DNA of 49,728 nucleotides from an uncultured Caulobacteraceae bacterium. GTDB taxonomy: Bacteria > Pseudomonadota > Alphaproteobacteria > Caulobacterales > Caulobacteraceae. The stretch spans positions 1-49,728 of the forward strand of contig CAZRKY010000001.1 in the NCBI GenBank assembly GCA_964600375.1, written 5' to 3'. Under the pieces are notes generated by a model, which worked only from the letters and a program-made list of their open reading frames with translations, ran no database searches and had not been told where the DNA came from. Each line of letters begins with the position of its first letter. Within the stretch, counting starts at the first letter, position 1. The translations under genes and the position numbers were made by a program. Of the stretch, positions 24,485-45,125 are shown one piece after another.

Positions 24485-26163
24485 TCCGGGATGTTGTCGA
24501 GATCCCTGCCCTTGGTCTCGGGCAGGAACAGGACCGCCACGATGATGGCCAGCAGGGTGAAGCCCACCGGGTACCAGAGCCCGAAGTAGATATCGCCCGA
24601 GCCCGCCATCATGGCGAAGGCCGCCGCCGGCAGGAAGCCGCCGACCCAGCCGGTGCCGATGTTGTAGGGCACGCCCATGCCGGTGTAGCGCACCCGCGTC
24701 GGAAACAGCTCGACCAGGGCCGAGGCCTGCGGCCCGTAGAGCGCCGTGGCGGCGACGACGAAGACCAGCATGATGGCGAACAGGGTCTTCATGTCGGTCT
24801 GGGCTGGGTCGGCCTTCTCTGGATAGCCGTGGGCGCGCAGGGCGGCCGAGACCTCGGCCTCGACCGAGGTCCTGAGCGCCTTCAGCGCGTCCTTGTCCAG
24901 GCCCCGTCCGTCGCGTGAGGCGATGGTCTGGTCGCCGACGGTGACCGTGGCGATCGAGCCCGCCGGGCCGGCGCGGTTCTCGTAGGAGACGCCGGCGTTG
25001 GTCAGGTAGCCCTTGGCGATGTCGCAGGAGGAGGCGAAGGTCGCCTTGCCGACGGGGTCGAACTGCAGGGAGCAACTGGCCGGATCGGCGGTCACCACCA
25101 CCGGGGCGGCGCGCTGGGCATCGGCCAGGGCGGGATTGCCGGCGCGGGTCATGTAGTGGAAGGCCGAGGTGCCGAAGCTGGGCACGAAGGCGGCGGCGGC
25201 CAGGATCATGCCGAACAGCATCACCGGCTTGCGTCCGATCTTGTCCGAGAGCCAGCCGAAGAAGACGTAGAGGAAGGCCGAGACGGCGGTCGAGCCGACC
25301 ATCAGCTGCAGCACCACGCTGTCGTCCAGCTTGATGATCTTCTGCATGAAGAACTGGCTGTAGAAGAAGGCGCAGTACCAGACCGCGCCCTGGGCGATCA
25401 TGACCCCGAACAGGACCAGCAGCACCTTCCTGAGGTTTACCCACTTGAAGAAGGTCTCGCTGACCGGCGCGCGGGGGTGGTGGGCGCTCTCCTCCTCCAT
25501 CTTCCTGAAGGCGGGGCTCTCGCCCAGCTTCATGCGGATCCATAGCGAGATCAGCAGCAGGAGCGACGACAGCACGAACGGAATGCGCCAGCCCCAGCCG
25601 TCCTCGAAGGCCTCCTTGCCCATGATCTCGCGGCAGGCCCAGATGACCAGCAGGGCGCCGATCAGGCCGAGCGCGGCGGACGTCTGGATGAAGCTGGTCA
25701 TCAGGCCGCGCTTCTTCGCCGGGGCGTGTTCGGCGACGTAGATGGCGGCCCCGCCGTACTCTCCGCCCAGCGCGAAGCCCTGGATCATGCGCAGGATGAT
25801 CAGACCGATGGGCGCCGCCATGCCTATGGCGTTGTAGTCGGGCAGGAGGCCGATCCCCACGGTGGCCAGGCCCATGGCGGTGATGGTCACCAGGAAGGCG
25901 CCCTTGCGCCCCTTCATGTCGCCGAAGACGCCGAACACCAGGGCCCCCAGCGGGCGCACGAAGAAGCCGACCGCGAAAGTCGCCAGCGCCAGAATGAAGC
26001 CGGTCGCCTCGCTGACCCCGGCATAGAAGTGCTTGGCGATGATGGTGGCGAGCGATCCGAAGACGAAGAAGTCGTACCATTCGAAGGCCGTGCCGGCGGC
26101 CGAGGCCGCGACGACGGTCGTCAGGCCGGGTTCCTTGTCGGCCGCCTTGCCCTGATCGCTCAT
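24481..26163 (-). CDS. MFS transporter (metabolite:H+ symporter, ProP/KgtP-like) with a large extra loop
   Basis: 560 aa from the ATG at 26163 (SD GGGGGAA). MHS-type N-terminus (FEWYDFFVFG) and 12 predicted TM helices. A soluble insert of about 120 aa lies between TM9 and TM10 (about 24790-25149). Confidence 0.85.
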   Translation of the reverse strand: MSDQGKAADKEPGLTTVVAASAAGTAFEWYDFFVFGSLATIIAKHFYAGVSEATGFILALATFAVGFFVRPLGALVFGVFGDMKGRKGAFLVTITAMGLATVGIGLLPDYNAIGMAAPIGLIILRMIQGFALGGEYGGAAIYVAEHAPAKKRGLMTSFIQTSAALGLIGALLVIWACREIMGKEAFEDGWGWRIPFVLSSLLLLISLWIRMKLGESPAFRKMEEESAHHPRAPVSETFFKWVNLRKVLLVLFGVMIAQGAVWYCAFFYSQFFMQKIIKLDDSVVLQLMVGSTAVSAFLYVFFGWLSDKIGRKPVMLFGMILAAAAFVPSFGTSAFHYMTRAGNPALADAQRAAPVVVTADPASCSLQFDPVGKATFASSCDIAKGYLTNAGVSYENRAGPAGSIATVTVGDQTIASRDGRGLDKDALKALRTSVEAEVSAALRAHGYPEKADPAQTDMKTLFAIMLVFVVAATALYGPQASALVELFPTRVRYTGMGVPYNIGTGWVGGFLPAAAFAMMAGSGDIYFGLWYPVGFTLLAIIVAVLFLPETKGRDLDNIPD

Positions 26164-26221
26164 GGTTTCCCCCGTTTTCCGCAAGGGTCTACCACGCCGC
26201 CCGGGCTTGGCAATCGGGCAA

Positions 26222-26252
26222 GCCAAAGGCCCCGCAGCAGGGCCGCGGGGCC
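26222..26252 (-). terminator. possible intrinsic terminator after the entericidin-like gene
   Basis: GGCCCCGC / GCGGGGCC stem (26228-26252) followed on the minus strand by only TTTGG, a weak T-tract. Confidence 0.4.
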
Positions 26253-26274: not shown

Positions 26275-26418
26275 CTAGTTGTGCGGCGTCGCCTCGGTGG
26301 CGACGTCGGAGACGGCGTCGCCGGTGGCGGAGACGTCTTCACCAACGCCCCGCATGGTGTTGCAGGCGGCGGTGGTGAGCGCGGCGGCGGCGGCGAGAAT
26401 GACGAAAAACGTACGCAT
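26275..26418 (-). CDS. entericidin EcnA/B family small lipoprotein
   Basis: 47 aa from the ATG at 26418 (SD GGAGG): MRTFFVILAAAAALTTAACNTMRGVGEDVSATGDAVS.... Lipobox TAAC followed by the CNTxxGxGxD pattern. Confidence 0.8.
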   Translation of the reverse strand: MRTFFVILAAAAALTTAACNTMRGVGEDVSATGDAVSDVATEATPHN

Positions 26419-26447
26419 TGGGATTTTGCCTCCAGTTGTACGACCCA

Positions 26448-26472
26448 AACGATCAGGCCGCCTCGGAGTTCC
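26448..26472 (-). promoter_or_regulatory. EcfG/SigT-type promoter GGAAC-N16-CGTT for the entericidin-like gene
   Basis: The plus strand shows AACG (26448-26451), N16, GTTCC (26468-26472). Most of the motif lies inside the last codons of phyK. Confidence 0.7.
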
Positions 26473-28192
26473 CGTTCTCCACGGCCTCTTGCGCGCTGAG
26501 ATCCGGCGTCGGGAAGGTGAGGCGCGCGACAAGGCCGCCGTTCGGCCCCTTCACCACCTCGGAGTGGCCCCTCAGCTGGCGCGCGAAGGCCGTCATCAGC
26601 GTGCGGCCAACGCCGCCGCGCACGTCATCCTGCTCCATCAGGATGCCGGGCCCGTCGTCCTCGACTTCCAGGGTCGTGTCGGCCTCGGCCACCTTGAAGC
26701 GAACCCTCAGTGTGCCGCCCCGGTCGTTGAAGGCGTGTTTCTGGGCGTTGGTGATGGCCTCGACGGCCCAGAGCGCCAGGGGCGCCAGCTTGTCCGGGTC
26801 AATGACCAGGTCATCCACATCCAGCTCGGTGCGCACCAGCGGCCCCCGGCCCAGGTCCCCCTGCAGCAGCTGGGCGATGAGCTCTTCGAGGAATTGGCGC
26901 ACGTCGGCGCGGCGCAGGTCAGGGCTCTGGTAGAGCGCCCGGTAGATGAGGGCCAGGGCGGTTATCCGCTGGCGCGTGTCGCTCATCGCCGCCCGGGCGG
27001 CCGGATCGGTCAGAGACCGCTGCTGCATGTTGAGCAGGCTGGAGATGACCTGCAGGTTGTTCTTCACCCGGTGGTGGATCTCGCGCATCAGCGCGTCCTT
27101 GTGGGCGATGCTCTCGTGCAGGGAGTGGTCGCGCGCGTCGATGGCGTCGGCCATCTGGTCGAGCGTGATGGCCAGGGTGCGGATCTCAAGCGGGGCATTG
27201 CGCGCCTGCACCGGACGGACGGTGAAACGGCCCTTGGCGTAGACCCGCGCGATCCGGTCCAGATAGCCCAGCCAGCGGATCACCACCCGCTCGGTCACCA
27301 CCAGCACCGCGACGACCGCGAACAACCAGGCCAGGATGGGCAGGATCAGGCTGACGAACGGGTTCAGTCGCGCCCAGCTGAACAGGCCCTGGGCCGGCGC
27401 GGACAGCAACACGAAGACGTCCTGGCCTACCAGCGGCGCGCCGGCATAGACGTGCGTCCGGCCGGACGTGTCACGCCCGTAGAAGAGCGCCGATCCATCG
27501 TCGTCGGCCTGGGCGGTCCAGTGCCGAGGCACGCCGCGGAAAGCTTCCATATCCGTTGCGGTCAGGATCGAGCCGGAGGCGTCGATGATCGCGACCTCTG
27601 AATTGTCCGGCATGTCCCTGTCGCCGGCCACCGGGCGCAGGGCTGACAGGGGAATGACCGCCAGGAAGGCGCCGTCAAAGGCCCCGTTCGCCCGCTCCGA
27701 GCGAATGGCGGCGATGAGCGCGGGCTCGGGACCGAACACGCCGCTGGGCGCGCGGGTGACGGTCAGGCCGGCGCCGTCCTTCAGACGATCGAACCAATCC
27801 CCGGCCGCCCCGACCCGGCTATAGGCCACCGGCGCGCTGGAGCAGAGAAGCTTGCCGTTCGCACCGAAGCGCACCAGCGCATCCAGTCCGGCGACGCGTC
27901 CGGCGAGGCCGCCGAGGCGATCCTGACAGGTGGGACCGGTCGATTCCGGCCCCAGGGCGTCGAGCAGCACCACCGCGCCGTCGATGCGCGCGCGAGCGCT
28001 GGCCGCGCTGCGCTCGGCGCCCAGCAGCAGGTCCGATCGCTGGTGCTGGGCCTCCCGCTTGAACGCTTCAGCCGACTGGAGTCCGCTCAGCGCCAGCACC
28101 GGCAAGAGAGCCAGCGACAGCGCCATGAACAGGCGGAATCGAATGGTCTGGAGCCTGCGTCCGCGCGCCGGTCGCGGTCCGAGCAGCCTCAC
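26453..28192 (-). CDS. phyK: HisKA_2/HWE-type sensor histidine kinase, PhyK-like (GSR kinase)
   Basis: 579 aa with a GTG start preceded by GAGGTGA. Two TM helices flank a periplasmic domain. H-box HHRVKNNLQVISSLLNMQ. Starts 8 nt downstream of sigT, as in the Caulobacter nepR-sigT-phyK operon. Confidence 0.82.
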   Translation of the reverse strand: MRLLGPRPARGRRLQTIRFRLFMALSLALLPVLALSGLQSAEAFKREAQHQRSDLLLGAERSAASARARIDGAVVLLDALGPESTGPTCQDRLGGLAGRVAGLDALVRFGANGKLLCSSAPVAYSRVGAAGDWFDRLKDGAGLTVTRAPSGVFGPEPALIAAIRSERANGAFDGAFLAVIPLSALRPVAGDRDMPDNSEVAIIDASGSILTATDMEAFRGVPRHWTAQADDDGSALFYGRDTSGRTHVYAGAPLVGQDVFVLLSAPAQGLFSWARLNPFVSLILPILAWLFAVVAVLVVTERVVIRWLGYLDRIARVYAKGRFTVRPVQARNAPLEIRTLAITLDQMADAIDARDHSLHESIAHKDALMREIHHRVKNNLQVISSLLNMQQRSLTDPAARAAMSDTRQRITALALIYRALYQSPDLRRADVRQFLEELIAQLLQGDLGRGPLVRTELDVDDLVIDPDKLAPLALWAVEAITNAQKHAFNDRGGTLRVRFKVAEADTTLEVEDDGPGILMEQDDVRGGVGRTLMTAFARQLRGHSEVVKGPNGGLVARLTFPTPDLSAQEAVENGNSEAA

Positions 28193-28199
28193 GGCCGGA

Positions 28200-28784
28200 T
28201 CACCTCGCGCCGCTTAGACGGTCCGCATCGGCGAGGATCGAGCCCATCGCCTCCCCGGCCGGGGTTCCGTCGCGCTCATAGGCGCCGGCTTCCAGCGAGG
28301 CCTGCACGGCCCGCCGGGCGCGACTGACTCGCGATTTCACAGTGCCCACGGCGCACCCGCAGATTTCGGCGGCTTCCTCGTAGGCAAATCCGCCGGCGCC
28401 GACCAGGACCAGGGCTTCCCGCTGTTCGTCGGGCAGGGTCTTCAGCGCCTGGCGCAGTTCGTCCAGGGCGAGTGGGGCGGACGGGTCGTCGATGGCCATC
28501 AGGGTGCGTTCGGCGGCCTCCTGATCGAGTTGGGTCTGGCGCCAGGACCGGCGCTTCTCCGAGTAGAACTGGTTGCGCAGGATCATGAAGGTCCAGGCCT
28601 TCATGTTGGTGCCCATCTGGTAGCTGGCCCGCGCGTCCCAGGCCTTCAGCATCGCGTCCTGGGCCAGGTCGTCGGCCGCGGTGGCGTTGCCGCACAGCGT
28701 GCGCGCAAAGGCGCGCAGGTGCGGGATCAGGGTCACCAGCTCCTTGCGGAAGCGTTCGTCGTCTGTGGAGGCCTGGCCTGCCAT
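28200..28784 (-). CDS. sigT: ECF sigma factor, EcfG family (general stress response sigma)
   Basis: 194 aa with sigma-70 regions 2 and 4 (DDLAQDAMLKAW, EAAEICGCAVGTVKSRVSRAR). Start overlaps the nepR stop. Context with nepR and phyR. Confidence 0.9.
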   Translation of the reverse strand: MAGQASTDDERFRKELVTLIPHLRAFARTLCGNATAADDLAQDAMLKAWDARASYQMGTNMKAWTFMILRNQFYSEKRRSWRQTQLDQEAAERTLMAIDDPSAPLALDELRQALKTLPDEQREALVLVGAGGFAYEEAAEICGCAVGTVKSRVSRARRAVQASLEAGAYERDGTPAGEAMGSILADADRLSGAR

Positions 28785-28993
28785 CAGGACCCGCCCTTCG
28801 ACTTGTCGTCGGCGCGGCGGAGGATGTCGAGGAAGTCGTCAGGCACTGGTTCGTTCACCACCTGATCGAACATCTGGCGCAGCTTCACGCCGATGGCCTG
28901 CTGCCGAAGCCGAGCCTCGTCGAGCGCCTGATCGTCTCGCTCCGGCGCGGGGCGTGGGGATTCGCTGTGATCAATCATGACTTTACGGCGCAT
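28784..28993 (-). CDS. nepR: anti-sigma factor NepR
   Basis: 69 aa. Conserved NepR core (LRQMFDQVVNEPVPDDFLDILRRAD). Alternative start at 28978. Confidence 0.85.
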   Translation of the reverse strand: MRRKVMIDHSESPRPAPERDDQALDEARLRQQAIGVKLRQMFDQVVNEPVPDDFLDILRRADDKSKGGS

Positions 28994-29071
28994 GGGACGC
29001 GCGCCGTCTTTCCGAAAGCGTGTGATTTCATAATATTACGCGCCGCCCCCTGGCTTGCTTGACCCGCGACT

Positions 29072-29097
29072 AACGCAGTCCCCGTCCTTACGGTTCC
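29072..29097 (-). promoter_or_regulatory. EcfG/SigT-type promoter GGAAC-N17-CGTT for nepR-sigT-phyK (autoregulation)
   Basis: The plus strand shows AACG (29072-29075), N17, GTTCC (29093-29097), about 80 bp upstream of the nepR ATG. Confidence 0.75.
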
Positions 29098-29138
29098 CCG
29101 GCAAGCCAAAATAAAGTGAAGCTTGCCCGGATTCGAGC

Positions 29139-29163
29139 GGAACCATAACGCTCTGACCTCATT
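29139..29163 (+). promoter_or_regulatory. imperfect EcfG-type promoter GGAAC-N16-CATT upstream of phyR
   Basis: GGAAC at 29139-29143 and CATT at 29160-29163, one mismatch in the -10 element. Orientation and distance to phyR are correct. Confidence 0.45.
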
Positions 29164-29248
29164 ATGATGTTCGGCAGGGGCGCGCACGCGCATGCGCCCC
29201 GCCATGATTTTTAGTCAGCACTGCAACTTGCGTGTCGGGGAAATGAAC

Positions 29249-30046
29249 ATGGGTCTTCTGGCCAGACTGGCGCCGCATCTGCCTTACGTCCGCCGCTATG
29301 CGCGGGCGCTCACCGGTGATCAGAAAACCGGCGACAACTACGTCCGCGTGGCGCTGGAGGCCCTGGCCGCCGGCGAGCGCAGCCTGGACGAGGGCCTTTC
29401 GCCGCGGGTGTCGCTCTACCACGTGTTCCACGCCATCTGGTGCTCCACCGGCGCCCAGCTGGAAAGCGAAGACACTGGGCTCGGCGCCCCCGACGAGGCG
29501 GCCCGCCGCTTGATGCGGATCGCCCCCCGGTCGCGCCAGGCCTTCCTGCTCACCGCGCTTGAGGGCTTCACCCCCTCTGAGGCCGCCCAGATCCTCGGCG
29601 GCGACGTCACCGAAGTCGAGCAGCTGATCGGCGAGGCCCAGGCCGAAATCGATGCCGAACTGGCGACCGACGTGCTGATCATCGAGGACGAACCGGTCAT
29701 CGCCTCCGATATCGAGGCCCTGGTCCGCGAGCTCGGCCACACGGTCATCGATGTGGCCGCCACCCACAACGAGGCCATCGACTCGGTCGCGCGCAAGCGG
29801 CCCGGCCTTGTGCTGGCGGATATCCAGCTGGCCGACGGCTCCTCGGGCATCGACGCGGTGAAGGACATCCTGACCAAGTTCGACGTGCCGGTGATCTTCA
29901 TCACGGCCTTCCCCGAGCGCCTGCTGACCGGCGAGCGTCCCGAGCCGACCTTCTTGATCACCAAGCCCTTCCAGCCCGAAACGGTGAAGGCGGCGATCGG
30001 CCAGGCGCTCTTCTTCCACCCGGTCCGCACCCGCGAAGCGGCCTAG
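29249..30046 (+). CDS. phyR: anti-anti-sigma response regulator PhyR (sigma-like domain + receiver)
   Basis: N-terminus MGLLARLAPHLPYVRRYARALTGDQ, typical of PhyR. C-terminal receiver (VLIIEDEP...LADIQLADGSSG...). Alternative ATG at 29243. Confidence 0.92.
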   Translation: MGLLARLAPHLPYVRRYARALTGDQKTGDNYVRVALEALAAGERSLDEGLSPRVSLYHVFHAIWCSTGAQLESEDTGLGAPDEAARRLMRIAPRSRQAFLLTALEGFTPSEAAQILGGDVTEVEQLIGEAQAEIDAELATDVLIIEDEPVIASDIEALVRELGHTVIDVAATHNEAIDSVARKRPGLVLADIQLADGSSGIDAVKDILTKFDVPVIFITAFPERLLTGERPEPTFLITKPFQPETVKAAIGQALFFHPVRTREAA

Positions 30047-30071
30047 CGACCCTGAACGGCCCCGACCCTTG

Positions 30072-30108
30072 GTCCTCCGGCTCTCGTGAGCCGGAGGACT
30101 TTCTTTTG
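30072..30108 (+). terminator. intrinsic terminator after phyR
   Basis: GTCCTCCGGCTC-TCGT-GAGCCGGAGGAC followed by TTTCTTTTG. Confidence 0.8.
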
Positions 30109-30112
30109 CGCG

Positions 30113-30391
30113 CTAGGAGCCGGACCGCTGCCGGATCGGCGGATCGGCCGGGGTGTTGAAGTCAGACGCCTCGGCGGCCTGGGCCTGCGGACTGTCCTCG
30201 GTGGCGGCGAACGGGCCCATGTGCAGGCCCCACACGACCAGGAAGGCGGCGACCACCAGGACCAGGGAGGTGGCCAGGATCCAGACGACGTGGGTGCCAC
30301 GGCGGCCCTGACGCACGTACTGGGCCTCGACGGGCCGGCCTTCATGCACGGCGTCGGCGGCCTGGGAATGGGGATCGAGAGCCTGGGTCAT
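30113..30391 (-). CDS. small single-pass membrane protein (hypothetical, GSR-associated)
   Basis: 92 aa from the ATG at 30391, preceded by the strong SD GAGGAGAA. One TM helix (VVWILATSLVLVVAAFLVVWGL). Has its own EcfG-type promoter. Confidence 0.7.
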   Translation of the reverse strand: MTQALDPHSQAADAVHEGRPVEAQYVRQGRRGTHVVWILATSLVLVVAAFLVVWGLHMGPFAATEDSPQAQAAEASDFNTPADPPIRQRSGS

Positions 30392-30420
30392 CGCTTTTCT
30401 CCTCTTCGTGCGAAGAGGGG

Positions 30421-30445
30421 AACGAACGTGGGGCGGGGCCGTTCC
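30421..30445 (-). promoter_or_regulatory. EcfG/SigT-type promoter GGAAC-N16-CGTT for the small membrane protein
   Basis: Reverse complement of 30421-30445 is GGAAC GGCCCCGCCCCACGTT CGTT. The -10 element lies about 30 nt upstream of the ATG. Confidence 0.7.
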
Positions 30446-30503
30446 CGCCGAACCCTTGTGGAACAAGGGGTTCGCGCCGACAGAAAAAAATTGCGACTTT
30501 TCC

Positions 30504-30528
30504 GGAACCCATGCGCCCGGCTGCCGTT
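30504..30528 (+). promoter_or_regulatory. EcfG/SigT-type promoter GGAAC-N16-CGTT driving a non-coding transcript
   Basis: GGAAC at 30504-30508, N16, CGTT at 30525-30528. No ORF follows before the terminator at about 30621-30655. Confidence 0.75.
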
Positions 30529-30534
30529 TACATG

Positions 30535-30650
30535 ATGCGGAGGCGGTGACGCCCCCCCCGACTTGAGACTGGCCTAGCCAGTCTACCGTCTCCGCACCTT
30601 ATTCTCGATGATGCGACTTCGGCGGGCTCCCCAGGGAGCCCGCCTTTTCG
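30535..30650 (+). ncRNA. gsrN: SigT-dependent small RNA, GsrN-like (C-rich unpaired region + intrinsic terminator)
   Basis: Promoter-to-terminator unit of about 115 nt. Outer stem 30538-30548 / 30585-30595 encloses an unpaired C8 tract (30552-30559) and the hairpin AGACTGG/CCAGTCT (30566-30584). Terminator stem GGCGGGCTCC/GGAGCCCGCC plus TTTTCGTTGTT. The ends are estimates. Confidence 0.65.
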
Positions 30651-30666
30651 TTGTTCGCGTGGGCTG

Positions 30667-31125
30667 TCAGCGCGGCGTGACGGTCAGGAACACTTCCGCG
30701 CGGCGACGGACGGGGTCGTCCTGGCCCTGGGCCGTCGTGGCCCCGGCTTCGCCGTTTGCGTCGATTTCGAAGGACGGCGCGGGAAGGCCCTGTTGCCGAA
30801 GGGCGCCGGCCACGGCGACGGCGCGTTGCTGCGACAGGGTCAGGTTGGCCTGGGAGCCGCCGGTGGCGTCGGAAAGCCCCACCACCCTGGCCCGGGTGAT
30901 GTTGCAGTCCCTGAGCGCGCGCCCGGTCTCCTGGATCAATTGTCCGGCCGGCCGGGTGAGGCGATTGGAATTCTCGCTGAAATAGACCGTGAACTGGGTG
31001 TCCACACAGGCGCTTTCGGTGCGGACCAGGTCTGAACGCGTCCGCACCAGGTGTCCGCACCCGGCCGCCGACACGCCGAAACCCACCACCACGACCGCCA
31101 GAACCGCTACCGCCGACTTGCTCAT
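30667..31125 (-). CDS. OmpA/MotB C-terminal domain lipoprotein
   Basis: 152 aa from the ATG at 31125 (SD GGAGGG). Signal peptide with lipobox SAAGC. OmpA-like segment (TVYFSENSNRL...NLTLSQQRAVAVAGAL...RRAEVF). Confidence 0.8.
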   Translation of the reverse strand: MSKSAVAVLAVVVVGFGVSAAGCGHLVRTRSDLVRTESACVDTQFTVYFSENSNRLTRPAGQLIQETGRALRDCNITRARVVGLSDATGGSQANLTLSQQRAVAVAGALRQQGLPAPSFEIDANGEAGATTAQGQDDPVRRRAEVFLTVTPR

Positions 31126-31263
31126 CGCACCCTCCATGGCAAAGCTTGCTTGCCCCCTGATAGCGCGTGGCGGCGAATTTTGTTCATTTTCTGTGGAACC
31201 CGCATTCGCGTGACGGGCGAGAGCGCTGGAAAGCCCTGTGGCTTTCGGGACCTATGCCAATCC

Positions 31264-31278
31264 TTAACCGTGCGTTAA
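31264..31278. promoter_or_regulatory. TTAA-N7-TTAA (CtrA-box-like) site
   Basis: TTAACCGTGCGTTAA read directly, about 76 bp upstream of the ATG at 31354. Confidence 0.35.
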
Positions 31279-31353
31279 TCTTGATGATGAGTACGGGACC
31301 GGCGCTCGCCCTGGAGGTGGGGCGGCCGGCAGGGGTTCAAGGAGAGGGTCACC

Positions 31354-31818
31354 ATGCGTTTTCCACAAGCGGCGCACATGCCGGACGACGGCCACGGACA
31401 CGGCCACGGCCATGACGATCACGGCCACAGCGCGCCTGCAGCCGCCACCAGCTCAAGCGCCGTGGATGCGCCGGTCTGGGCGCGTCGCCAAGGCCGCAGC
31501 GGCGGGGGCGCCGGCATTTTCGGCATCCTGTTCTTCCTCCTGGCCATCTTCGGCATCCTGTCGATCGCGCTAGCGGTCATGGACAAGTCGTTCGCCGCGG
31601 GCGGCGCCCGTATCGATGGCTGGATCAAGCCGGCCGTTGACCAGATCGCCAAGATGACCGGCAAGGCCGGCGCCAAGGCCGAGGACGCCGCCGGTGACGC
31701 CGCCGCCGCCGCGGGCGACGCGGCCGAAGCCGCCGGCGACGCCGCGGAATCTGCCGGCGACGCCGCCCAGGAAGCCACGGCCCCGGCCGCCGCGCCTGCC
31801 GCTCCGGCCAAGAAATAG
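31354..31818 (+). CDS. hypothetical membrane protein with His-rich N-terminus and Ala/Asp heptad-repeat C-terminus
   Basis: 154 aa, SD AAGGAGAG. N-terminal DDGHGHGHGHDDHGH, one TM helix (IFGILFFLLAIFGILSIALAV), and a C-terminal (A)GDAAxxA x4 repeat. Confidence 0.7.
   Translation: MRFPQAAHMPDDGHGHGHGHDDHGHSAPAAATSSSAVDAPVWARRQGRSGGGAGIFGILFFLLAIFGILSIALAVMDKSFAAGGARIDGWIKPAVDQIAKMTGKAGAKAEDAAGDAAAAAGDAAEAAGDAAESAGDAAQEATAPAAAPAAPAKK
31687..31770 (+). repeat. in-frame 21-bp imperfect tandem repeat x4 (GDAAxxA heptads)
   Basis: GG(T/C)GAC starts at 31693, 31714, 31735 and 31756. Confidence 0.8.
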
Positions 31819-31857
31819 GGCTTCGGCCGGCCTTTTTGGCCGTCTGCAAGCTTGACA

Positions 31858-31882
31858 GGAACCGGCGCCCCGCGCGCACGTT
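31858..31882 (+). promoter_or_regulatory. EcfG/SigT-type promoter GGAAC-N16-CGTT for the lipid-kinase/phosphoesterase operon
   Basis: GGAAC at 31858-31862 and CGTT at 31879-31882. The ATG at 31891 is only 8 nt past the -10 element, which implies a leaderless or near-leaderless mRNA. Confidence 0.65.
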
Positions 31883-31890
31883 CGGTCGTG

Positions 31891-32835
31891 ATGACTGATG
31901 CGGGCGGGGCCCTTCCAACCTTGAAACTGACGCCGCACGCGCGACTCGAGCGCGTGGAGGTCGTCATCAATCCTGCGTCCGGCGGCGTGGGCCCGACGGC
32001 TGCGGCCGAATGTGAGGCCCTGTGCAAGGCCTTCGACGGCGCCGACTGGAACCTGGTCGAGGTCCAGCCCGGCGGTGTGGACAAGGCCGTCCAGGACGCC
32101 GTGGACGCCAAGCCCGACCTTGTGATCATCCTGGCCGGCGACGGCACGGCTCGCGCCGCCGCCACCCTGGCCGGTCCGCACGGCCCCATGGTCGCGCCGC
32201 TGCCCGGCGGCACCATGAACATGCTGCCCAAGGCCCTCTACGGGACCGCCGACTGGAAGGCGGCCCTGAACCTCGCCCTGACGGAGGGCGTCGAGCGCCC
32301 GGTAGCGGGCGGCGAGGTCGACGGCATCAGCTTCTTCTGCGCCGCCATCCTGGGCGCGCCCGCCCTGTGGGCCCCGGCGCGGGAGGCCGTTCGCTCCGGC
32401 GCTCCCCGTCTGGCCTGGCTCTACGCCAAGCGGGCGCTGCGCCGCGCCTTCGCCGGCCATATCCGTTTCCAGCTCGACAACGGGGTGGTCTGCAAGGGCG
32501 AGGCGCTGGCGCTCATCACCCCCCTGATCTCCCGGGCGCTGGAAACCCCGTCGGGCCTGGAATCGGCGGTGATGAACCTGTCGGGCGCCAGCGAGGCCTT
32601 CCGTCTGGCGGCCACCGCGCTGTTCTCGGACTGGCGCAGCGACCCGTCTGTCGAGACCAAGGTGGTGCGCCACGCCGTCGCCTGGGCCCACCACGAGATG
32701 CCGGCCATCCTCGACGGGGAGAGCGTCCACCTGGGCAAGCGCGCGACCGTGACCTTCGTCCCCTGCGCGTTCCGCACCCTGGCGCCGAAGGTCGCCAACT
32801 CCGCCATTTCCCTCGCCCCTGAGGCCCAGGGCTGA
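31891..32835 (+). CDS. diacylglycerol/lipid kinase family protein (DAGK_cat, YegS/BmrU-like)
   Basis: 314 aa from the ATG at 31891. Motifs VVINPASGG, AGDGT and PGGTMN. The track start (TTG at 31852) lies upstream of the predicted promoter. Confidence 0.78.
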   Translation: MTDAGGALPTLKLTPHARLERVEVVINPASGGVGPTAAAECEALCKAFDGADWNLVEVQPGGVDKAVQDAVDAKPDLVIILAGDGTARAAATLAGPHGPMVAPLPGGTMNMLPKALYGTADWKAALNLALTEGVERPVAGGEVDGISFFCAAILGAPALWAPAREAVRSGAPRLAWLYAKRALRRAFAGHIRFQLDNGVVCKGEALALITPLISRALETPSGLESAVMNLSGASEAFRLAATALFSDWRSDPSVETKVVRHAVAWAHHEMPAILDGESVHLGKRATVTFVPCAFRTLAPKVANSAISLAPEAQG

Positions 32836-33665
32836 TGGGTCGAATCTTTCACTTCTCGGACGTCCACTTCGGGGCCGAACACAAGGCCGCGGTCGCCGCG
32901 GCCCTGGCCCATGCCCATGCCAATGAGCGCGATCTGGTCCTGATCACTGGCGACATCACGCAGCAGGGCTACCGCCGGGAGTTCGCCGCCGCGGCAGAGT
33001 GGATCGCCGCCATGCCCGAGCCGGTGTTCGTGGTCACCGGCAACCACGACGTGCCCTACTGGGATCCGTTCGCGCGCGTCTTCGCGCCCTGGAAGCGGTT
33101 CGAGCACTACGTGGGGGTCCCCGCCTTCGACCACCAGTTCGACGCGCCGGGGCTATCGGTGCGGGGGGTCAACACCGCCCGCGGCTGGCAGATGCGCACC
33201 AACTGGTCCAAGGGCGTCATCGACCTCGACCAGACCCGCCGCGCCGCCTACGCCCTGGCCAATGCGCCCGAGGGGGCGCTCAAGATCCTGGCCTGCCACC
33301 ATCCGCTGATCGAGATGATCGGCGCGCCGATGAGCGGCGAGGTGATCCGTGGTCAAGCGGCGGCGAAGATCTTCACCGATTGCGGCGTGGATCTGATCAT
33401 GACCGGTCACGTCCATGTCCCGTTCGCCCTGCCGATCACCATGGGCGACAAGTGCTCCTACGGCGTGGGCGCCGGGACCCTCTCCATGCGTGAGCGCGGC
33501 ATGCCGCCCGGCTTCAACTGCGTCGAATGGGATGACGCCACGGTGACGGTCACCGCGCTGGGCTGGGCCGGGTCGCACTTCGAGTCCCAGAGAACCTGGC
33601 ATCTGGAGCGGCGGACAACGACGAAAGCCGCGGCGTTGCGAGCCGCGGCTTCCATTCCGTCCTAG
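32835..33665 (+). CDS. metallophosphoesterase (calcineurin-like)
   Basis: 276 aa. Motifs HFSDVHFG, GDITQ, GNHD and GHVH. Start overlaps the upstream stop (TGATG). Confidence 0.88.
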   Translation: MGRIFHFSDVHFGAEHKAAVAAALAHAHANERDLVLITGDITQQGYRREFAAAAEWIAAMPEPVFVVTGNHDVPYWDPFARVFAPWKRFEHYVGVPAFDHQFDAPGLSVRGVNTARGWQMRTNWSKGVIDLDQTRRAAYALANAPEGALKILACHHPLIEMIGAPMSGEVIRGQAAAKIFTDCGVDLIMTGHVHVPFALPITMGDKCSYGVGAGTLSMRERGMPPGFNCVEWDDATVTVTALGWAGSHFESQRTWHLERRTTTKAAALRAAASIPS

Positions 33666-33678
33666 GCGACGCGGGCCG

Positions 33679-33855
33679 CTAGACCCGGGTGCCGCGACCC
33701 CTGAACGCGCCCGCGATCAGCGAAACCACGAACAGCACGATAAAGACGAAGAACAGGATCTTGGCGATGTCCATGGACACGCCGGCCACGCCGCCGAAGC
33801 CGAGGAAGGCGGCGATCAGCGCGACAATCAAGAAACCCAAGGCCCAGCGAAGCAT
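33679..33855 (-). CDS. DUF1328 (YtjA-like) small membrane protein
   Basis: Not in the ORF track (58 aa). My translation is [66 protein letters not shown], with its own EcfG-type promoter. Confidence 0.8.
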
Positions 33856-33905
33856 GTCGTATCTCCTGAAAGTTACGGCCCTGCGGCGGGCCGTTCGGAG
33901 ATAAC

Positions 33906-33930
33906 AACGTTGGCGGAGGCCCTGCGTTCC
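33906..33930 (-). promoter_or_regulatory. EcfG/SigT-type promoter GGAAC-N16-CGTT for the DUF1328 gene
   Basis: The plus strand shows AACG (33906-33909), N16, GTTCC (33926-33930). It starts 3 nt after the stop codon of the upstream membrane-protein gene. Confidence 0.72.
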
Positions 33931-33933
33931 GGC

Positions 33934-34335
33934 CTAGCGACGGCGCTTGGGACCTTCGTCCGAGGGCGCGCCGCTGAGGGCGGCGGCGACGATGGTGGCG
34001 AGCGCCGGGTTGCGCAGGAAGATGAAGCCCGCGGCCAGCCCCGCCGCGGTCGCCGCGATGGGGCGCTCCTTGGCGAAGCCGATCAACCGGTGGGTCAGGC
34101 TCTCAGGCTCCGGCTCCGGCGCCGAGCGGAACATCGGCTTGCCGAAGGCCAGCAGGCCTACGATGCCGGCCCCGACCGCCATGATCGCGGCGAGCACGAG
34201 CGCCGCTCCCCAGTTCGGCAGGACCTGGACAAGGCCGTACCAGGCGGCGCTGCCCAGGGCCGTGACGCAGAGGATCACAGCCGTCGCGATCGCCGCGATG
34301 GCTGCGACCTTCGCCGCGATGCGACCTCCGATCAA
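33934..34335 (-). CDS. small multi-TM membrane protein (YqjE / holin-X-like, tentative)
   Basis: 133 aa and hydrophobic. TTG start overlaps the TGA of the DUF883 gene (TTGA). The family assignment rests on synteny with the DUF883 gene, as in yqjD-yqjE. Confidence 0.55.
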   Translation of the reverse strand: MIGGRIAAKVAAIAAIATAVILCVTALGSAAWYGLVQVLPNWGAALVLAAIMAVGAGIVGLLAFGKPMFRSAPEPEPESLTHRLIGFAKERPIAATAAGLAAGFIFLRNPALATIVAAALSGAPSDEGPKRRR

Positions 34336-34613
34336 CGGCGGCCGCCCGCCAGCAGCATGCCGATGACCACGCCGATTCCGACGGCGGTCAGGGTCGAGAC
34401 GATGGGCTTCTCCTGGACGCGCTCGGTGACGTAGCGCTGGGCGGTCTCGAGCTGGTCGGAGGCTTCGTCGTAGTACTCGCGGGCCCGCTCGCGGAATTCG
34501 CCGGCGCGTTCGCGCACGGCCTGTTCGGCGCGCAGGGCGAACTCGCGGACGCGGCGTTCTTCTTCGCTCAGGCCGTTGGCGCGGTCAGCGGCGGCTTTGG
34601 ATTGGGCGGCCAT
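34332..34613 (-). CDS. DUF883 (ElaB/YqjD/YgaM) membrane-anchored stress protein
   Basis: 93 aa, SD AGGAGAAG. Charged helical N-terminus and a C-terminal anchor (TLTAVGIGVVIGMLLAGGRR). Confidence 0.85.
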   Translation of the reverse strand: MAAQSKAAADRANGLSEEERRVREFALRAEQAVRERAGEFRERAREYYDEASDQLETAQRYVTERVQEKPIVSTLTAVGIGVVIGMLLAGGRR

Positions 34614-34658
34614 GGTAGCTTCTCCTGGAATTGGGTGCGAAGGCAGCCCCGACGCGTC

Positions 34659-34683
34659 AACGCGCCGCGACCGCCACCGTTCC
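34659..34683 (-). promoter_or_regulatory. EcfG/SigT-type promoter GGAAC-N16-CGTT for the DUF883 operon
   Basis: The plus strand shows AACG (34659-34662), N16, GTTCC (34679-34683), about 46 bp upstream of the ATG at 34613. Confidence 0.72.
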
Positions 34684-40054: not shown

Positions 40055-40209
40055 GGCGCAGGGTCCTTTCGGAATACCCGCGCGGCGCCGCGTGGCGATG
40101 AGGATTGAGGCGACAACGCCGGCGCGCCGCCCGGCGGTCGCCTCGACGGAGGACGCCCCGTCGAGACAGGGATCCTCACGCGCCCAAGGTCTGGTCCCGG
40201 ACCACGGGT

Positions 40210-40435
40210 CGAGCGACGGCGGCGGCAGGTCTCCTGGCTTCGCGGGTCAACAGCCGTTCGTCCTCGCCTTCCCGGCCCGAAATCCTGGCCAGTGGCGCCG
40301 CCCCAAGCGGGGGCGGACGGACGAGGGCCTCGCCGCTCACAGTTGCGGGCACAGCCGCGGATTAGGGGCAGGGCCCCGCACCGCATTCCCATCTTGGCCC
40401 CCCGTTAAAGGGGGAACCGCCTGGGCACCGGTATG
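40210..40435 (-). promoter_or_regulatory. cobalamin (B12) riboswitch
   Basis: The minus strand reads GGTGCCCAGG...AAGATGGGAATGCGGTG...AATCCGCGGCTGTGCCCGCAACTGTGA...GCCACTGGCC...GGGAAGGCG...GAAGCCAGGAGACCTGCC. The B12 box is at 40224-40239. The boundaries are approximate. Confidence 0.85.
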
Positions 40436-40494
40436 GCGGAGGGGGAAGGGGGAGGCAAGGGAGCCGGGAGCAGCGCCGCAAACGCGGTCTTCCC

Positions 40495-41400: not shown

Positions 41401-41490
41401 GGAGAGGTGGCCGAGTGGTCGATGGCGCACGCTTGGAAAGCGTGTATAGGGGAAACTCTATCGTGGGTTCGAATCCCACTCTCTCCGCCA
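41401..41490 (+). tRNA. tRNA-Ser (anticodon GGA), CCA encoded
   Basis: GGAGAGG...CCGAGTGGTC (D arm), anticodon loop TTGGAAA, a long variable arm, T arm GGGTTCGAATCCC, and acceptor end CTCTCCGCCA. Confidence 0.9.
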
Positions 41491-41659
41491 CCCACCCGTC
41501 GAGATTTTCTCCGGGCTGAGGGCGTCCCAGAAACCCCCCGAAATTCCCGGGACTTCAACCCGGACAACCGCCGTAGCTCCCCGATTGATGTGCGTTTCAA
41601 CCCCAGTTCTGGGGGCAATATCCCTGCCTGGTCTCCGCCCGTCCCGGATGTAGTGGAGT

Positions 41660-41853
41660 TTCCCTGCTATCAGGGAATCTACAGGGAAGAGTCGCCAGAA
41701 AGGTCGCTTTTCGAGGGGTATCGACCCCCGACGTCCCTCGCAGACCCTTGTCCCGCAAGGGTCCCCGGACCTCTAACCCCCAATACCCTGTTCCAGACGG
41801 AACAGGGAATTGTGTTCGGTGGATCAGGGAACGGCCGAAATCAGATCAGGGAA
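41660..41853. repeat. cluster of CAGGGAA / TTCCCTG heptamers between tRNA-Ser and the recombinase gene
   Basis: Forward CAGGGAA at 41671, 41682, 41803, 41825 and 41847. Reverse TTCCCTG at 41660 and CCCTGTTCC at 41786. These include the inverted pairs TTCCCTG-N4-CAGGGAA and CCCTGTTCC-N4-GGAACAGGG. Confidence 0.9.
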
Positions 41854-43474: not shown

Positions 43475-43878
43475 GGCTGCTCCTCCCGAAGCCCGAAGAA
43501 CCGGGGTCCGTTCCACTTGGTCCCAGTGATCGCGCGGGCGACGGCGGATAGGCTCGGGTAGGTCTCGCCCTCCCAGACGAACCCGTCGGCGGTCGTCTCC
43601 ACGTCGTGGCACCGGCCCTGCCATTCCCTGGTGATCTTCAACCCGACAGACAGCCGCGAGGGGCCCGCCGCGGGCCTGGGCTGCCGAAGGACGCGTCGCA
43701 CCGACGAGGGGATATCGCCCCAGGCGTCAGACTGGATGCGCCAGGCCAGCAGGAGGCAGAGAAGCTCTTTGGAGCGGAGCCGAGGTGGCTCACCAATGCG
43801 TTCGCGCCAGACCCTGCGCAGGCCCTCGAGGTCCAGGCGTTCGAGCGCCTGGACCTCCGTTGTGATCGCATCAGCCAT
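43471..43878 (-). CDS. DUF2924 domain protein (recombinase-associated)
   Basis: 135 aa from the ATG at 43878. Pattern LEGLRRVWRERIGEPPRLRSKELL...ITGTKWNGPRFFGL. Overlaps both neighbouring genes. Confidence 0.8.
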   Translation of the reverse strand: MADAITTEVQALERLDLEGLRRVWRERIGEPPRLRSKELLCLLLAWRIQSDAWGDIPSSVRRVLRQPRPAAGPSRLSVGLKITREWQGRCHDVETTADGFVWEGETYPSLSAVARAITGTKWNGPRFFGLREEQP

Positions 43879-45056: not shown

Positions 45057-45125
45057 TTGGCAAAAAGTGACCCCCGATCCGGGGTGGATCTTCTGGCCTG
45101 ATGCCCCGCAGCAGCGGAGGCCGCC

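Follow-up and report, generated by a model that had tools for sequence, protein, structure and literature searches.

In a 49,728-nt stretch from an uncultured Caulobacteraceae bacterium (the window, a 49.7-kb contig), we identified a region that is very probably a general stress response (GSR) locus to which a conserved set of GSR effector genes is joined, with promoters of the SigT/EcfG type. A scan of both strands for GGAAC-N16/17-CGTT returned eight exact matches, comprising seven sites and one palindromic mirror, and all of these lay within 26448-34683 (8.2 kb). The remaining 41,319 bases of the window contained no exact GGAAC-N16/17-CGTT. These results agree with an earlier sequence-only reading, which had listed the same seven sites and strands without the mirror (30419-30443, + strand), had seen none in the other intergenic regions it scanned, and had estimated less than one chance occurrence per window. 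Indeed, dinucleotide shuffles of the window gave an expectation of 0.69 matches (maximum 4), and block shuffles restricted to the 8.4-kb region gave 0.095 (maximum 3 in 5000). Sites with one mismatch, taken as a class, occurred at chance level.

All seven exact sites lay between genes or at a gene end, in the correct orientation. Counted from the motif's last T, the start codon was 29 nt away for ecn, 78 nt for nepR, 29 nt for a 92-aa gene, 8 nt for dagk, 50 nt for the DUF1328 gene and 45 nt for the DUF883 gene, with 10 nt to the RNA 5′ end of gsrN and 82-88 nt from a variant site to phyR; the sequence-only reading had proposed 8-100 nt. When compared within the window, the sites had mutually unrelated spacers and flanks, and hence they are not copies of a repeat. 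The assignment of the motifs as EcfG/SigT-type promoters is well supported. The motifs, their statistics, their orientation and their conservation at orthologous positions were observed directly, and we infer their reading by SigT, the transcription start points and the roles of the effector genes.

Core regulators and their promoters

The nepR-sigT-phyK / phyR core had been recognised from the letters alone and stands, since NepR, PhyR and PhyK all pass their NCBIfam cut-offs. The phyK gene (26453-28192, - strand) encodes a HisKA_2/HWE sensor histidine kinase (Pfam HisKA_2) that matched the PhyK equivalog NF051872 with 807.7 bits (cut-off 750). The ECF sigma factor encoded by sigT (ecfG; 28200-28784, -) has the Pfam domains Sigma70_r2, Sigma70_r4_2 and PhyR_sigma2 and is 76-87% identical to the product of the sigma gene that nearly all relatives carry at this position; no EcfG-specific NCBIfam model scored above its cut-off. 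The sigT start overlaps by 1 nt the stop of nepR (28784-28993, -), which encodes the anti-sigma factor (Pfam PF18557); the protein scored 109.7 bits with the NCBIfam model 'anti-sigma T factor NepR' (cut-off 100). Upstream of this operon is an exact GGAAC-N17-CGTT (29072-29097, -), and an exact motif was present on this side in 72 of 78 relatives. A motif on the sigma-encoding operon is as expected of an autoregulated ECF sigma factor. Conserved coding sequence can also create the motif: relatives repeatedly show a match on the antisense strand of nepR because the NepR peptide is conserved.

The anti-anti-sigma response regulator gene phyR (29252-30046, +; Pfam PhyR_sigma2, PhyR_sigma-like and Response_reg) matched the NCBIfam PhyR family with 375 bits (cut-off 240). 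Its start is at 29246 or 29252, and start alignment showed that the ATG at 29252 is conserved in relatives. The near match in front of phyR that had been pointed out earlier, GGAAC-N16-CATT (29139-29163, +), is present and departs from the consensus at a conserved -10 base. This one-mismatch site is credible as a probable phyR promoter with a weakened -10 only because relatives carry the exact motif at the aligned position (an exact motif was found upstream of phyR in 74 of 80 relatives' loci); one of the two closest relatives (L085) has CGTG at that place. A terminator-like hairpin (30071-30100) separates phyR from the convergent 92-aa gene.

It is unlikely, at roughly the level of an outside chance, that some or all of these sites are read by another sigma factor of overlapping specificity, such as a SigU-like EcfG paralogue encoded elsewhere. 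Many ECF sigma factors share GGAAC at -35 and CGT at -10, and this genome is known from 49.7 kb, so paralogues may lie elsewhere. C. crescentus has a SigT-dependent paralogue, SigU, which is needed by at least one gene, CC_3466 (PMC3073932). However, the sigT operon itself bears the motif, sigT was the sole ECF sigma gene found in the 25-36 kb stretch examined, and sigT-dependence has been reported in C. crescentus for the counterparts of ecn (CC_3473) and phyR (PMC3073932) and for gsrN (PMC5869019). A paralogue would in any case act downstream of SigT, in the same response.

Effector genes and the small RNA GsrN

Pfam and NCBIfam searches agreed with the gene identities proposed by the sequence-only reading. 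Beyond phyK, a 47-aa entericidin-like lipoprotein gene (ecn; 26275-26418, -; Pfam PF08085, 30.9 bits, with an NCBIfam entericidin B match below cut-off) is followed by a terminator-like hairpin (26228-26244). The -35 of its promoter, an exact GGAAC-N16-CGTT (26448-26472, -), lies inside the last phyK codons and the -10 overlaps the phyK stop; an exact upstream motif was found in 52 of 60 relatives. On the other side of phyR, an ORF encodes a 92-aa single-pass membrane protein (30113-30391, -) that had no family match in Pfam or NCBIfam. Homologues occupy the same position in 40 relatives, 39 of which have an exact motif upstream. In the window this promoter (30421-30445, -) is palindromic and is also read as the + strand mirror at 30419; the palindrome at this position is kept in none of the relatives, and the mirror is therefore probably not used.

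An sRNA left unnamed in the sequence-only reading was identified by Rfam as the GSR small RNA GsrN (30537-30644, +; RF01529 'CC3552', 90.3 bits with a gathering score of 50), with a full-length match starting at 30539, 10-11 nt after the -10 of an exact motif (30504-30528, +). The predicted transcription start site (TSS) is 9-10 nt past the -10, as in C. crescentus. The 5′ loop is C-rich (CCCCCCCC), and an intrinsic terminator occupies 30621-30644. All 48 gsrN homologues found have a GGAAC-type -35 at a fixed distance, and their motifs were exact in 25 cases, with one mismatch in 22 (20 of them in the first -10 base, nGTT) and two mismatches in one.

Two genes within the island are without a credible motif here. 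For the OmpA-like lipoprotein gene (30667-31137, -; Pfam OmpA) no exact EcfG motif was found, the best candidate being TGAAC-N16-CGCT with two mismatches (31162-31186, -); in relatives, an exact motif on this side usually precedes a small glycine-zipper gene or a 114-aa gene, neither of which the window has. The second gene encodes a conserved 154-aa membrane protein (31354-31818, +) with one TM segment, a His-rich N-terminus and an Ala/Asp-rich tail, for which Pfam and NCBIfam searches gave no family. It is 71% and 65% identical to its homologues in the two closest relatives (L085 and L084, respectively) and 33% in Brevundimonas intermedia (L081). An EcfG motif upstream was not found in this genome, whereas in Phenylobacterium-type loci the homologue is the first gene behind an EcfG promoter. 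The intergenic region between the two genes has a TTAA-N7-TTAA (31264-31278), which matches the CtrA-box consensus and is not an EcfG element. It is the single exact occurrence in the window (0.00 expected) and is kept in both closest relatives within a conserved block of ~80 nt, but was absent from the remaining fetched loci (1.43 Mb scanned in total).

The next exact motif (31858-31882, +) precedes a lipid-kinase/phosphoesterase operon (dagk-mpe). Its -10 is separated from the ATG by 8 nt, so that the mRNA is predicted to be leaderless, and this geometry is shared with the two closest relatives and B. intermedia. The 314-aa DAGK_cat-family lipid kinase (31891-32835, +; Pfam PF00781) has a GDGT that is invariant across 44 homologues, and its AlphaFold model (pLDDT 83) resembles DgkB, YegS and sphingosine kinase 1 (TM 0.6-0.7). 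The start of the 276-aa calcineurin-like metallophosphoesterase gene (32835-33665, +; Pfam PF00149) overlaps the kinase stop by 1 nt; the model of its product (pLDDT 87) resembles GpdQ, Rv0805, Lmo2642 and SMPDL3. Kinase and phosphoesterase are paired in about 29 of 34 loci carrying either gene, and in each of the five loci that were examined one gene at a time. The exact motif accompanies the operon in three contexts: beside phyR, in a separate cluster (B. intermedia) and alone in unrelated surroundings (Peiella). The link between this operon and the GSR, which the sequence-only reading had drawn, is thus supported in silico. The leaderless geometry in this clade, together with promoter retention, is the one modestly new element here.

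The remaining effectors are small proteins on the - strand. A DUF1328 small membrane protein gene (33679-33855; Pfam PF07043, 60.9 bits; NCBIfam NF010228, 82.9 bits against a cut-off of 71) has an exact motif (33906-33930) that begins 4 nt past the upstream gene's stop. This motif is exact in 24 of 29 relatives, and also in B. intermedia away from phyR. A DUF883/ElaB-YqjD-like gene (34332-34613) gave weak matches (Pfam DUF883_C, 21.9 bits; NCBIfam ElaB, 21 bits), and overlaps by 4 nt the second gene of its operon, encoding a 133-aa YqjE/Holin-X-like membrane protein (33934-34335; Pfam PF07332, 27.1 bits, slightly under the cut-off of 28.4). The DUF883 gene is at the same position in 34 relatives, and the exact motif of the operon promoter (34659-34683) was found in 30 of these.

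The island across Caulobacteraceae

The same sites recur at orthologous positions in about 80 Caulobacteraceae loci. Over 1.35 Mb, 446 exact motifs were counted, and these were restricted to -5 to +7 kb around phyR; beyond, the density was 0-0.03 per kb. Among the 43 relatives with roughly full +/-10 kb sequence, 20 had 7-11 exact motifs in the same arrangement, and Caulobacter segnis has the whole island, including gsrN, with 11 exact motifs in 9 kb. The sequence-only reading had called this concentration unusual and expanded, which did not hold: the comparison of synteny that it suggested shows an arrangement common in Caulobacteraceae and not peculiar to this genome. The two closest relatives have the same seven sites as the window, with spacers that differ at six of them and a (near-)identical dagk spacer.

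It is very improbable that the cluster is an island peculiar to this genome, whether gained by horizontal transfer or expanded recently. The window looks enlarged when set against C. crescentus, the only well-studied reference, but gene order and motif positions are shared by about 30 Phenylobacterium/Caulobacter loci, the two closest relatives and C. segnis. Synteny extends to the genes on either side (MFS transporter, maleylacetoacetate isomerase-like GST and carbonic anhydrase), and the GC content of 0.67-0.70, like the 0.69-0.73 of the flanks, gives no hint of acquisition. In C. crescentus the island is divided into a sigT locus, with just ecn-phyK-sigT-nepR / phyR, and a gsrN locus whose genes follow the order seen in the island's right half; this points to a rearrangement in C. 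crescentus. That gsrN lies near the GSR locus in Caulobacteraceae has been published, with C. crescentus as the named exception (Tien et al. 2018, PMC5869019). In B. intermedia, dagk-mpe, DUF1328 and DUF883 keep their motifs and the block was not called beside phyR.

Global 5′-RACE in C. crescentus placed TSSs 33-35 nt past the motif's first G and 9-10 nt beyond its last T (PMC4287350, dataset S14). Those with a SigT motif include ecn (CCNA_03587), nepR, phyR (the P2 TSS), the OmpA-like CCNA_03669, and CCNA_03674, which by C. segnis synteny is the probable counterpart of the DUF883 gene. It is highly improbable that the matches are chance hits, a dispersed repeat or side effects of coding conservation instead of promoters. 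The antisense match in the relatives' nepR, the ecn -35 in phyK codons and the unneeded mirror at 30419 show that such matches arise, but the excess over both shuffles, the placement and orientation of the seven sites, their unrelated spacers, their conservation at orthologous positions despite spacers differing at six of seven sites in the closest relatives, and the mapped C. crescentus TSSs all speak against it.

Our preferred reading is a joined GSR locus and effector block under SigT/EcfG promoters. The mechanism, which we infer for this bacterium, is the one known in C. crescentus and in other Alphaproteobacteria. Stress would cause PhyR to be phosphorylated through a pathway that includes the kinase PhyK, and PhyR~P would bind the anti-sigma factor NepR to free SigT/EcfG, which would direct RNA polymerase to GGAAC-N16/17-CGTT promoters. 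Eight units would be driven in this way: nepR-sigT-phyK, in a positive autoregulation, phyR from its weakened -10, ecn, the 92-aa gene, GsrN as the post-transcriptional arm of the GSR, dagk-mpe as a translationally coupled operon on a leaderless mRNA, DUF1328, and DUF883 with the YqjE-like gene. As judged from gene order and motif positions, the joined GSR island is the layout that prevails in Caulobacter and Phenylobacterium and its clustering is inherited, with C. crescentus and Brevundimonas as variants split into two parts.

Gene content and EcfG motifs of the GSR locus

The gene map of the general stress response (GSR) locus was derived from the ORF listing and profile searches (Pfam and NCBIfam, with Rfam for the sRNA). 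On the minus strand lie genes for an MFS transporter (24481-26226), a 47-aa entericidin-like lipoprotein (ecn; 26275-26418), PhyK (26453-28192; NCBIfam equivalog, 807.7 bits against a cut-off of 750), SigT (28200-28784; assigned from its ECF domains and canonical position) and NepR (28784-28993; 'anti-sigma T factor NepR', 109.7 bits, cut-off 100), next to phyR on the plus strand (29252-30046; PhyR family, 375 bits, cut-off 240). With an ECF sigma factor, NepR, PhyR and the HWE/HisKA_2 kinase PhyK, the partner-switch module is complete at the locus. Beyond phyR are genes for a 92-aa single-pass membrane protein (30113-30391, -), an sRNA (30539-30643, +), an OmpA-like lipoprotein (30667-31137, -) and a 154-aa membrane protein of no family (31354-31818, +), a DAGK_cat kinase gene (31891-32835, +; PF00781, 47.6 bits) that overlaps a metallophosphoesterase gene (32835-33665, +) by one base, and, on the minus strand, genes for a DUF1328 protein (33679-33855), a YqjE/Holin-X-like membrane protein (33934-34335) and a DUF883-like protein (34332-34613). 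A GST-type isomerase gene and then a carbonic anhydrase gene follow from 34745 on the plus strand. The same families (entericidin, DUF883, YqjE-like and DUF1328) are represented in E. coli by ecnB, yqjD-yqjE, elaB and ytjA, which are dispersed and controlled by the general stress sigma factor RpoS, rather than by a group 4 ECF sigma factor as in the window.

In C. crescentus and other Alphaproteobacteria, the PhyR/NepR/SigT partner switch is established. At this locus, PhyR~P would sequester NepR, NepR sequestration would free SigT, and free SigT would transcribe from GGAAC-N16/17-CGTT (EcfG/SigT) promoters. All regulators, a motif before the sigma operon and a motif before six further units are directly visible in the window, and the motif ahead of the sigT-encoding operon would give autoregulation.

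A search of both strands for GGAAC-N16/17-CGTT returned eight exact matches, which correspond to seven sites plus the opposite-strand reading (30419-30443, +) of a palindromic site at 30421-30445 (-). These are the seven sites, in position and strand, that the sequence-only reading had reported, and its near match before phyR is also present (GGAAC-N16-CATT, 29139-29163). That reading had estimated fewer than one chance occurrence in the window and had seen no motif in the other intergenic regions it scanned; in agreement, dinucleotide-preserving shuffles gave a mean of 0.69 exact matches per window (maximum 4), and the remaining 41.3 kb contained none on either strand. In shuffles that kept local composition, 0.095 matches were expected in the 8.4-kb region (maximum 3 in 5000 trials), and the chance that seven independent, randomly scattered sites would all fall within one 8.2-kb span is ~2e-5. 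Relaxed motifs (one mismatch, or GGAAC-N16/17-DGTT) were not above chance outside the island in a scan of the window. One such near match, a palindromic GGAAC-N17-GGTT at 4538-4565 between recQ (2566-4425, -) and a class A penicillin-binding protein gene (4644-6731, +), was rejected as being at chance level for the relaxed pattern.

All eight sites face the next gene or RNA and lie 8-88 nt from its start codon or 5′ end, within the 8-100 nt first proposed. From the last T of the motif, the distance to the start is 29 nt for ecn, 78 nt for nepR, 82-88 nt for phyR, 29 nt for the 92-aa gene, 10 nt for the sRNA, 8 nt for the kinase gene, 50 nt for the DUF1328 gene and 45 nt for the DUF883 gene. 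Outside the -35 and -10 elements the eight sites are unrelated in sequence; on the basis of these unrelated spacers and flanks, together with normal composition, an origin from a repeat or mobile element was rejected. Horizontal acquisition of the whole island was likewise rejected, as its GC content is like that of the flanks, ORF and profile searches found no mobility genes within 26-35 kb, and its synteny is family-wide.

Published work in C. crescentus bears on the function of these sites. Global 5′-RACE identified 26 cell-cycle-regulated transcription start sites with a SigT motif, including those of ecn (CCNA_03587), nepR, phyR, CCNA_03669 and CCNA_03674; most of the 25-nt motifs begin at -33 to -35 (PMC4287350, dataset S14), so transcription starts 9-10 nt past the last T. 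Microarrays showed that phyR and the entericidin homologue CC_3473 are sigT-dependent (PMC3073932). The strain table in Tien et al. 2018 lists deletions of CCNA_03668, 03669 and 03587 (PMC5869019), which appear to belong to their ten 'strongly sigma-T-regulated' deletion genes. The reading of the window sites as EcfG promoters is well supported. We infer that SigT itself, and not a SigU-like paralogue, reads each site, and likewise infer the transcription start positions in the window.

The palindrome at 30419-30445 can match on both strands, its plus-strand reading pointing at the sRNA gene, and in Erythrobacter litoralis DSM 8509 a shared palindromic EcfG site (GGAACG...CGTTCC-type) serves nepR-ecfG and gsrP divergently (bioRxiv 10.1101/641647). 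Unlike that site, the window palindrome belongs to the promoter of the 92-aa gene and is not conserved: no relative is palindromic at this position. The sRNA gene also has its own promoter 85 nt downstream, and bidirectional use of the window palindrome is unlikely. Among the fetched loci of relatives, two have a single palindromic site between nepR and phyR, like that of E. litoralis (L054, 9897-9923; L058, 1362-1388).

A further match lies antisense within the nepR coding region, with one mismatch in the window (28831-28855, +) and exact in many relatives (GGAACTCGTCCGG.AC....TCGTT; e.g. L005, 9626-9650, and L012, 9611-9635). It arises because the conserved NepR peptide NEPVPD(D/E)F is read on the other strand, and illustrates that conserved coding sequence can mimic the EcfG motif.

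Elsewhere in the window we noted a cobalamin riboswitch (RF00174, 86 bits; 40207-40436, -) and a tRNA-Ser(GGA) (41401-41490) followed by DNA of lower GC content (0.63-0.66 versus ~0.70). This stretch encodes a large serine recombinase (41846-43624, -), a ParB_N/DNA methylase (45126-46472) and a terminase large subunit (46854-48509), and 41401-49728 probably represents a prophage that inserted at the tRNA and continues beyond the end of the contig.

Conservation and rearrangement among relatives

Conservation was assessed by a PhyR-protein scan of one genome per species, from which the best 80 of more than 521 loci, given as Caulobacteraceae, were taken together with flanks of up to 10 kb; these 80 did not include C. 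crescentus. The best 80 loci contained 446 exact motifs in 1.35 Mb, compared with ~19 expected at the window shuffle rate. Within this set the motifs were confined to -5 to +7 kb of phyR, with a density of 0-0.03 per kb beyond, and an exact motif preceded the orthologues of ecn (52/60), nepR (72/78), phyR (74/80), the 92-aa gene (39/40), the DUF1328 gene (24/29) and the DUF883 gene (30/34). About 30 Phenylobacterium and Caulobacter loci reproduced the full gene order seen in the window and had 7-11 motifs. The sequence-only reading had described an unusual, expanded island of eight promoters. Its motif observation was confirmed and its promoter interpretation stands as well supported, but its claim of an unusual concentration was not supported, the arrangement being the one common in the family: in the synteny comparison it had proposed, the island was not peculiar to the window and was contiguous in Caulobacter and Phenylobacterium loci, including C. 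segnis.

The closest relatives of the window locus, L084 and L085, were found through the kinase protein (75-79% identical) and share the flanking genes and all seven sites with the window. Six of the seven spacers differ from those in the window; the kinase spacer is identical in L085 and differs by two bases in L084. At phyR, the window near match aligns with exact motifs of other genomes, and L085 carries another single-base variant, CGTG. Sites have been kept at orthologous positions where the surrounding non-coding sequence has diverged. Like the window, L084 and L085 lack an exact site at the OmpA-like gene and at the 154-aa gene.

Comparison with known loci indicated that the island consists of two modules, with C. 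crescentus as the exception. In Brevundimonas, only the left part adjoins phyR (MFS, ecn, phyK, sigT, nepR, phyR, small membrane protein gene and gsrN). In B. intermedia the genes of the right part are clustered separately and encode OmpA, a glycine-zipper protein, a 111-aa homologue of the 154-aa protein, the kinase, the phosphoesterase, DUF1328 and GST, with four exact motifs in corresponding places and genes of 137 and 114 aa in the YqjE-like and DUF883-like positions. In Peiella, the kinase/phosphoesterase pair stands alone among housekeeping genes and has retained its exact motif. As the block remains intact in Brevundimonas although it lies apart from the regulators, the promoters can be kept without sigT close by.

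C. segnis (CP027850, 4.425-4.435 Mb) has the entire island in one piece, with 11 exact motifs over 9 kb where 0.34 would be expected. It shares with the window ecn, phyK, sigT, nepR, phyR, gsrN (99 bits in C. segnis) and the genes for small membrane proteins and the OmpA-like, DAGK-like, metallophosphoesterase, DUF1328, YqjE-like and DUF883-like proteins. C. segnis additionally has a second 86-aa gene, a 114-aa gene with an EcfG motif ahead of ompA and an Fe-SOD gene; it lacks the 154-aa gene, and its kinase gene has a 33-nt leader, compared with none predicted in the window.

The C. crescentus genes CC_3473-CC_3477 (CCNA_03587-03591) are identical to the window in content, order and orientation, with GGAAC-N16/17-CGTT before ecn, nepR and phyR in both. 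However, the C. crescentus GSR locus ends at phyR, whereas it is contiguous with the right part in the window and most relatives; the small membrane protein gene, gsrN, the OmpA-like and DUF883-like genes and their neighbours are ~86 kb away (3.830-3.838 versus 3.742-3.745 Mb). After gsrN, the order in C. segnis is OmpA, ..., Fe-SOD, two small genes, a PAS-HWE kinase, ..., aminopeptidase N, and C. crescentus has matching genes in CCNA_03669 (outer membrane protein), 03672 (superoxide dismutase), 03674, 03675 (PAS kinase) and 03680 (aminopeptidase N). From this match in order, the window island equates to two C. crescentus loci ~86 kb apart. Consistent with this, Tien et al. noted that gsrN typically adjoins the GSR regulators in Caulobacteraceae, with C. 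crescentus 'a notable exception' (PMC5869019). The window thus looked special because the published reference is rearranged.

Two further observations came from the fetched loci. Around its phyR, a Hyphomonadaceae MAG (L077) has ten exact motifs within 10.8 kb; the genes there differ in part and include a distant DAGK-like gene, a DUF1328 gene and an entericidin-like gene, so clustering of EcfG promoters around GSR regulators reaches beyond Caulobacteraceae. Three loci from MAGs labelled Parcubacteria (L002), Alsobacter soli (L023) and Neptunomonas phycophila (L050) encode PhyR proteins 79-84% identical to that of the window and carry typical Caulobacteraceae GSR regions (in L050 the left, Brevundimonas-type part only); these contigs are probably mis-binned, or their bins mislabelled.

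The GsrN sRNA and the ompA intergenic region

The window sRNA matches RF01529 ('CC3552') at full length (model positions 1-106; 90.3 bits, gathering threshold 50), with the CCCCCCCC tract as its C-rich 5′ loop, inside the first loop of the model. Its EcfG promoter is at 30504-30528 and an intrinsic (Rho-independent) terminator at 30621-30644. Tien et al. gave the name gsrN to ccna_R0081, from the screen of Landt et al. 2008, and in C. crescentus this gene (3,830,125-3,830,250, beside CCNA_03668/03669) has a consensus sigma-T site and is sigT-dependent (PMC5869019). Because Tien et al. refer to Landt et al. 2008 for ccna_R0081, and because gsrN adjoins CCNA_03668/03669 (~CC_3552), RF01529 would be GsrN (CCNA_R0081), and through it the window sRNA is taken to be GsrN. 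The two share the covariance match, 5′ C-rich loop, EcfG promoter, terminator and GSR-adjacent position, and show no material difference. By analogy with the 9-10 nt spacing in C. crescentus, the window transcript is predicted to start at 30537-30538; the Rfam model starts at 30539. Each of the 48 gsrN homologues found has a GGAAC-type motif at a fixed distance from the RNA start; the motif is exact in 25, deviates at one base in 22 and at two bases in one. Of these 23 variants, 20 differ at the first -10 base, so the gsrN -10 element is really nGTT.

Upstream of the OmpA-like and 154-aa genes, the EcfG search gave two-mismatch matches only. A degenerate EcfG site was rejected here, the region being occupied instead by a conserved block with a CtrA-box consensus. 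Exact motifs are absent at the OmpA-like gene in the window (30667-31350), L084 and L085, and present at C. crescentus CCNA_03669 and in most relatives. In C. segnis and B. intermedia this motif precedes a 113-114-aa gene upstream of ompA (the glycine-zipper gene in B. intermedia) that is absent from the window, where one deletion probably removed both the small gene and the promoter. The CtrA-box consensus TTAA-N7-TTAA (TTAACCGTGCGTTAA) lies at 31264-31278, 76 nt upstream of the 154-aa gene, as the sole exact occurrence in the window (0.00 expected). It is kept in L084 and L085 within a conserved block of ~80 nt and is absent from the other fetched loci (1.43 Mb in total); Phenylobacterium-type loci have two divergent EcfG motifs in the same intergenic region. 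In the window clade, cell-cycle control may have replaced stress control at this position.

The lipid-kinase/phosphoesterase operon and the core of the response

The sequence-only reading had tied a DAGK-like kinase and a phosphoesterase to the GSR. This link has held up as judged from promoter sequences, with an EcfG motif consistently kept ahead of the pair, including in B. intermedia and Peiella. The kinase has a DAGK catalytic domain (PF00781), a GDGT motif (GGDGT-type, nucleotide-binding) that is invariant among homologues, and a predicted two-domain fold (model pLDDT 83) that resembles DgkB, YegS and sphingosine kinase 1 (TM about 0.6-0.72, 13-20% identity). The phosphoesterase model (pLDDT 87) resembles GpdQ, Rv0805, Lmo2642 and sphingomyelinase-like SMPDL3 proteins. 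Neither protein reached an NCBIfam equivalog cut-off, and a sequence search of the PDB gave no match for the kinase and one weak match for the phosphoesterase. As fold searches gave assignments at superfamily level only, naming specific enzymes was rejected. Unlike the window kinase, DgkB, YegS, sphingosine kinase and the Caulobacter ceramide kinase CpgB (CCNA_01218) are not known to be paired with a GpdQ/Rv0805-like phosphodiesterase. In the literature searched, no published link of EcfG to a lipid kinase, DUF883, DUF1328 or metallophosphoesterase was found.

From the C. crescentus spacing, the kinase mRNA is predicted to start at 31891-31892, i.e. on the A of the ATG (31891), which would make it leaderless. 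The distance of 8-9 nt from motif to ATG also occurs in L084, L085 and B. intermedia, and probably in the relative L061. Other Caulobacter loci have kinase leaders of 13-46 nt, and in Phenylobacterium-type loci the promoter precedes the 154-aa gene homologue and is thus 300-490 nt upstream. An AAGCTT a few bases 5′ of the kinase-operon -35 element is conserved in the window (31848-31853, where it follows a hairpin after the 154-aa gene), B. intermedia (L081), L083, L084 and L085.

That the pair functions in lipid head-group turnover is no more than a reasonable guess. A fuller reading, which we consider rather improbable when taken as a whole, is that the operon is a conserved direct sigma-EcfG effector module of Caulobacteraceae, leaderless in the window clade, that turns over or remodels the head groups of membrane lipids under stress (for example, the phosphodiesterase would release diacylglycerol or ceramide and the kinase would re-phosphorylate the released lipid), and that the co-location of up to ten EcfG units has been selected rather than being neutral synteny. 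Such selection might, for instance, favour rapid capture of newly synthesized sigma factor close to its source, or co-inheritance.

Signalling in the alphaproteobacterial GSR is already well understood; the protective action of its regulon is much less so, and no peroxide phenotype resulted when ten strongly sigT-regulated genes of C. crescentus were deleted one at a time (PMC5869019). Our findings leave the current understanding of GSR function unchanged. What is modestly new is the family-wide conservation of an 8-11-promoter block, the apparently consistent EcfG control of the lipid-kinase/phosphodiesterase operon, and the predicted leaderless transcript of this operon in the window clade. 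A caution for the field is that the locus of the model organism, C. crescentus, is rearranged and not typical. The compact effector set (small envelope proteins, GsrN and the lipid-kinase/phosphodiesterase pair) travels with the regulators in Caulobacter, Phenylobacterium and related lineages, and the EcfG promoter has stayed with the enzyme pair at each place to which the pair has moved. It is therefore reasonable to regard the block as a candidate for the conserved core of the GSR, and the enzyme pair as a concrete lead to a biochemical output.
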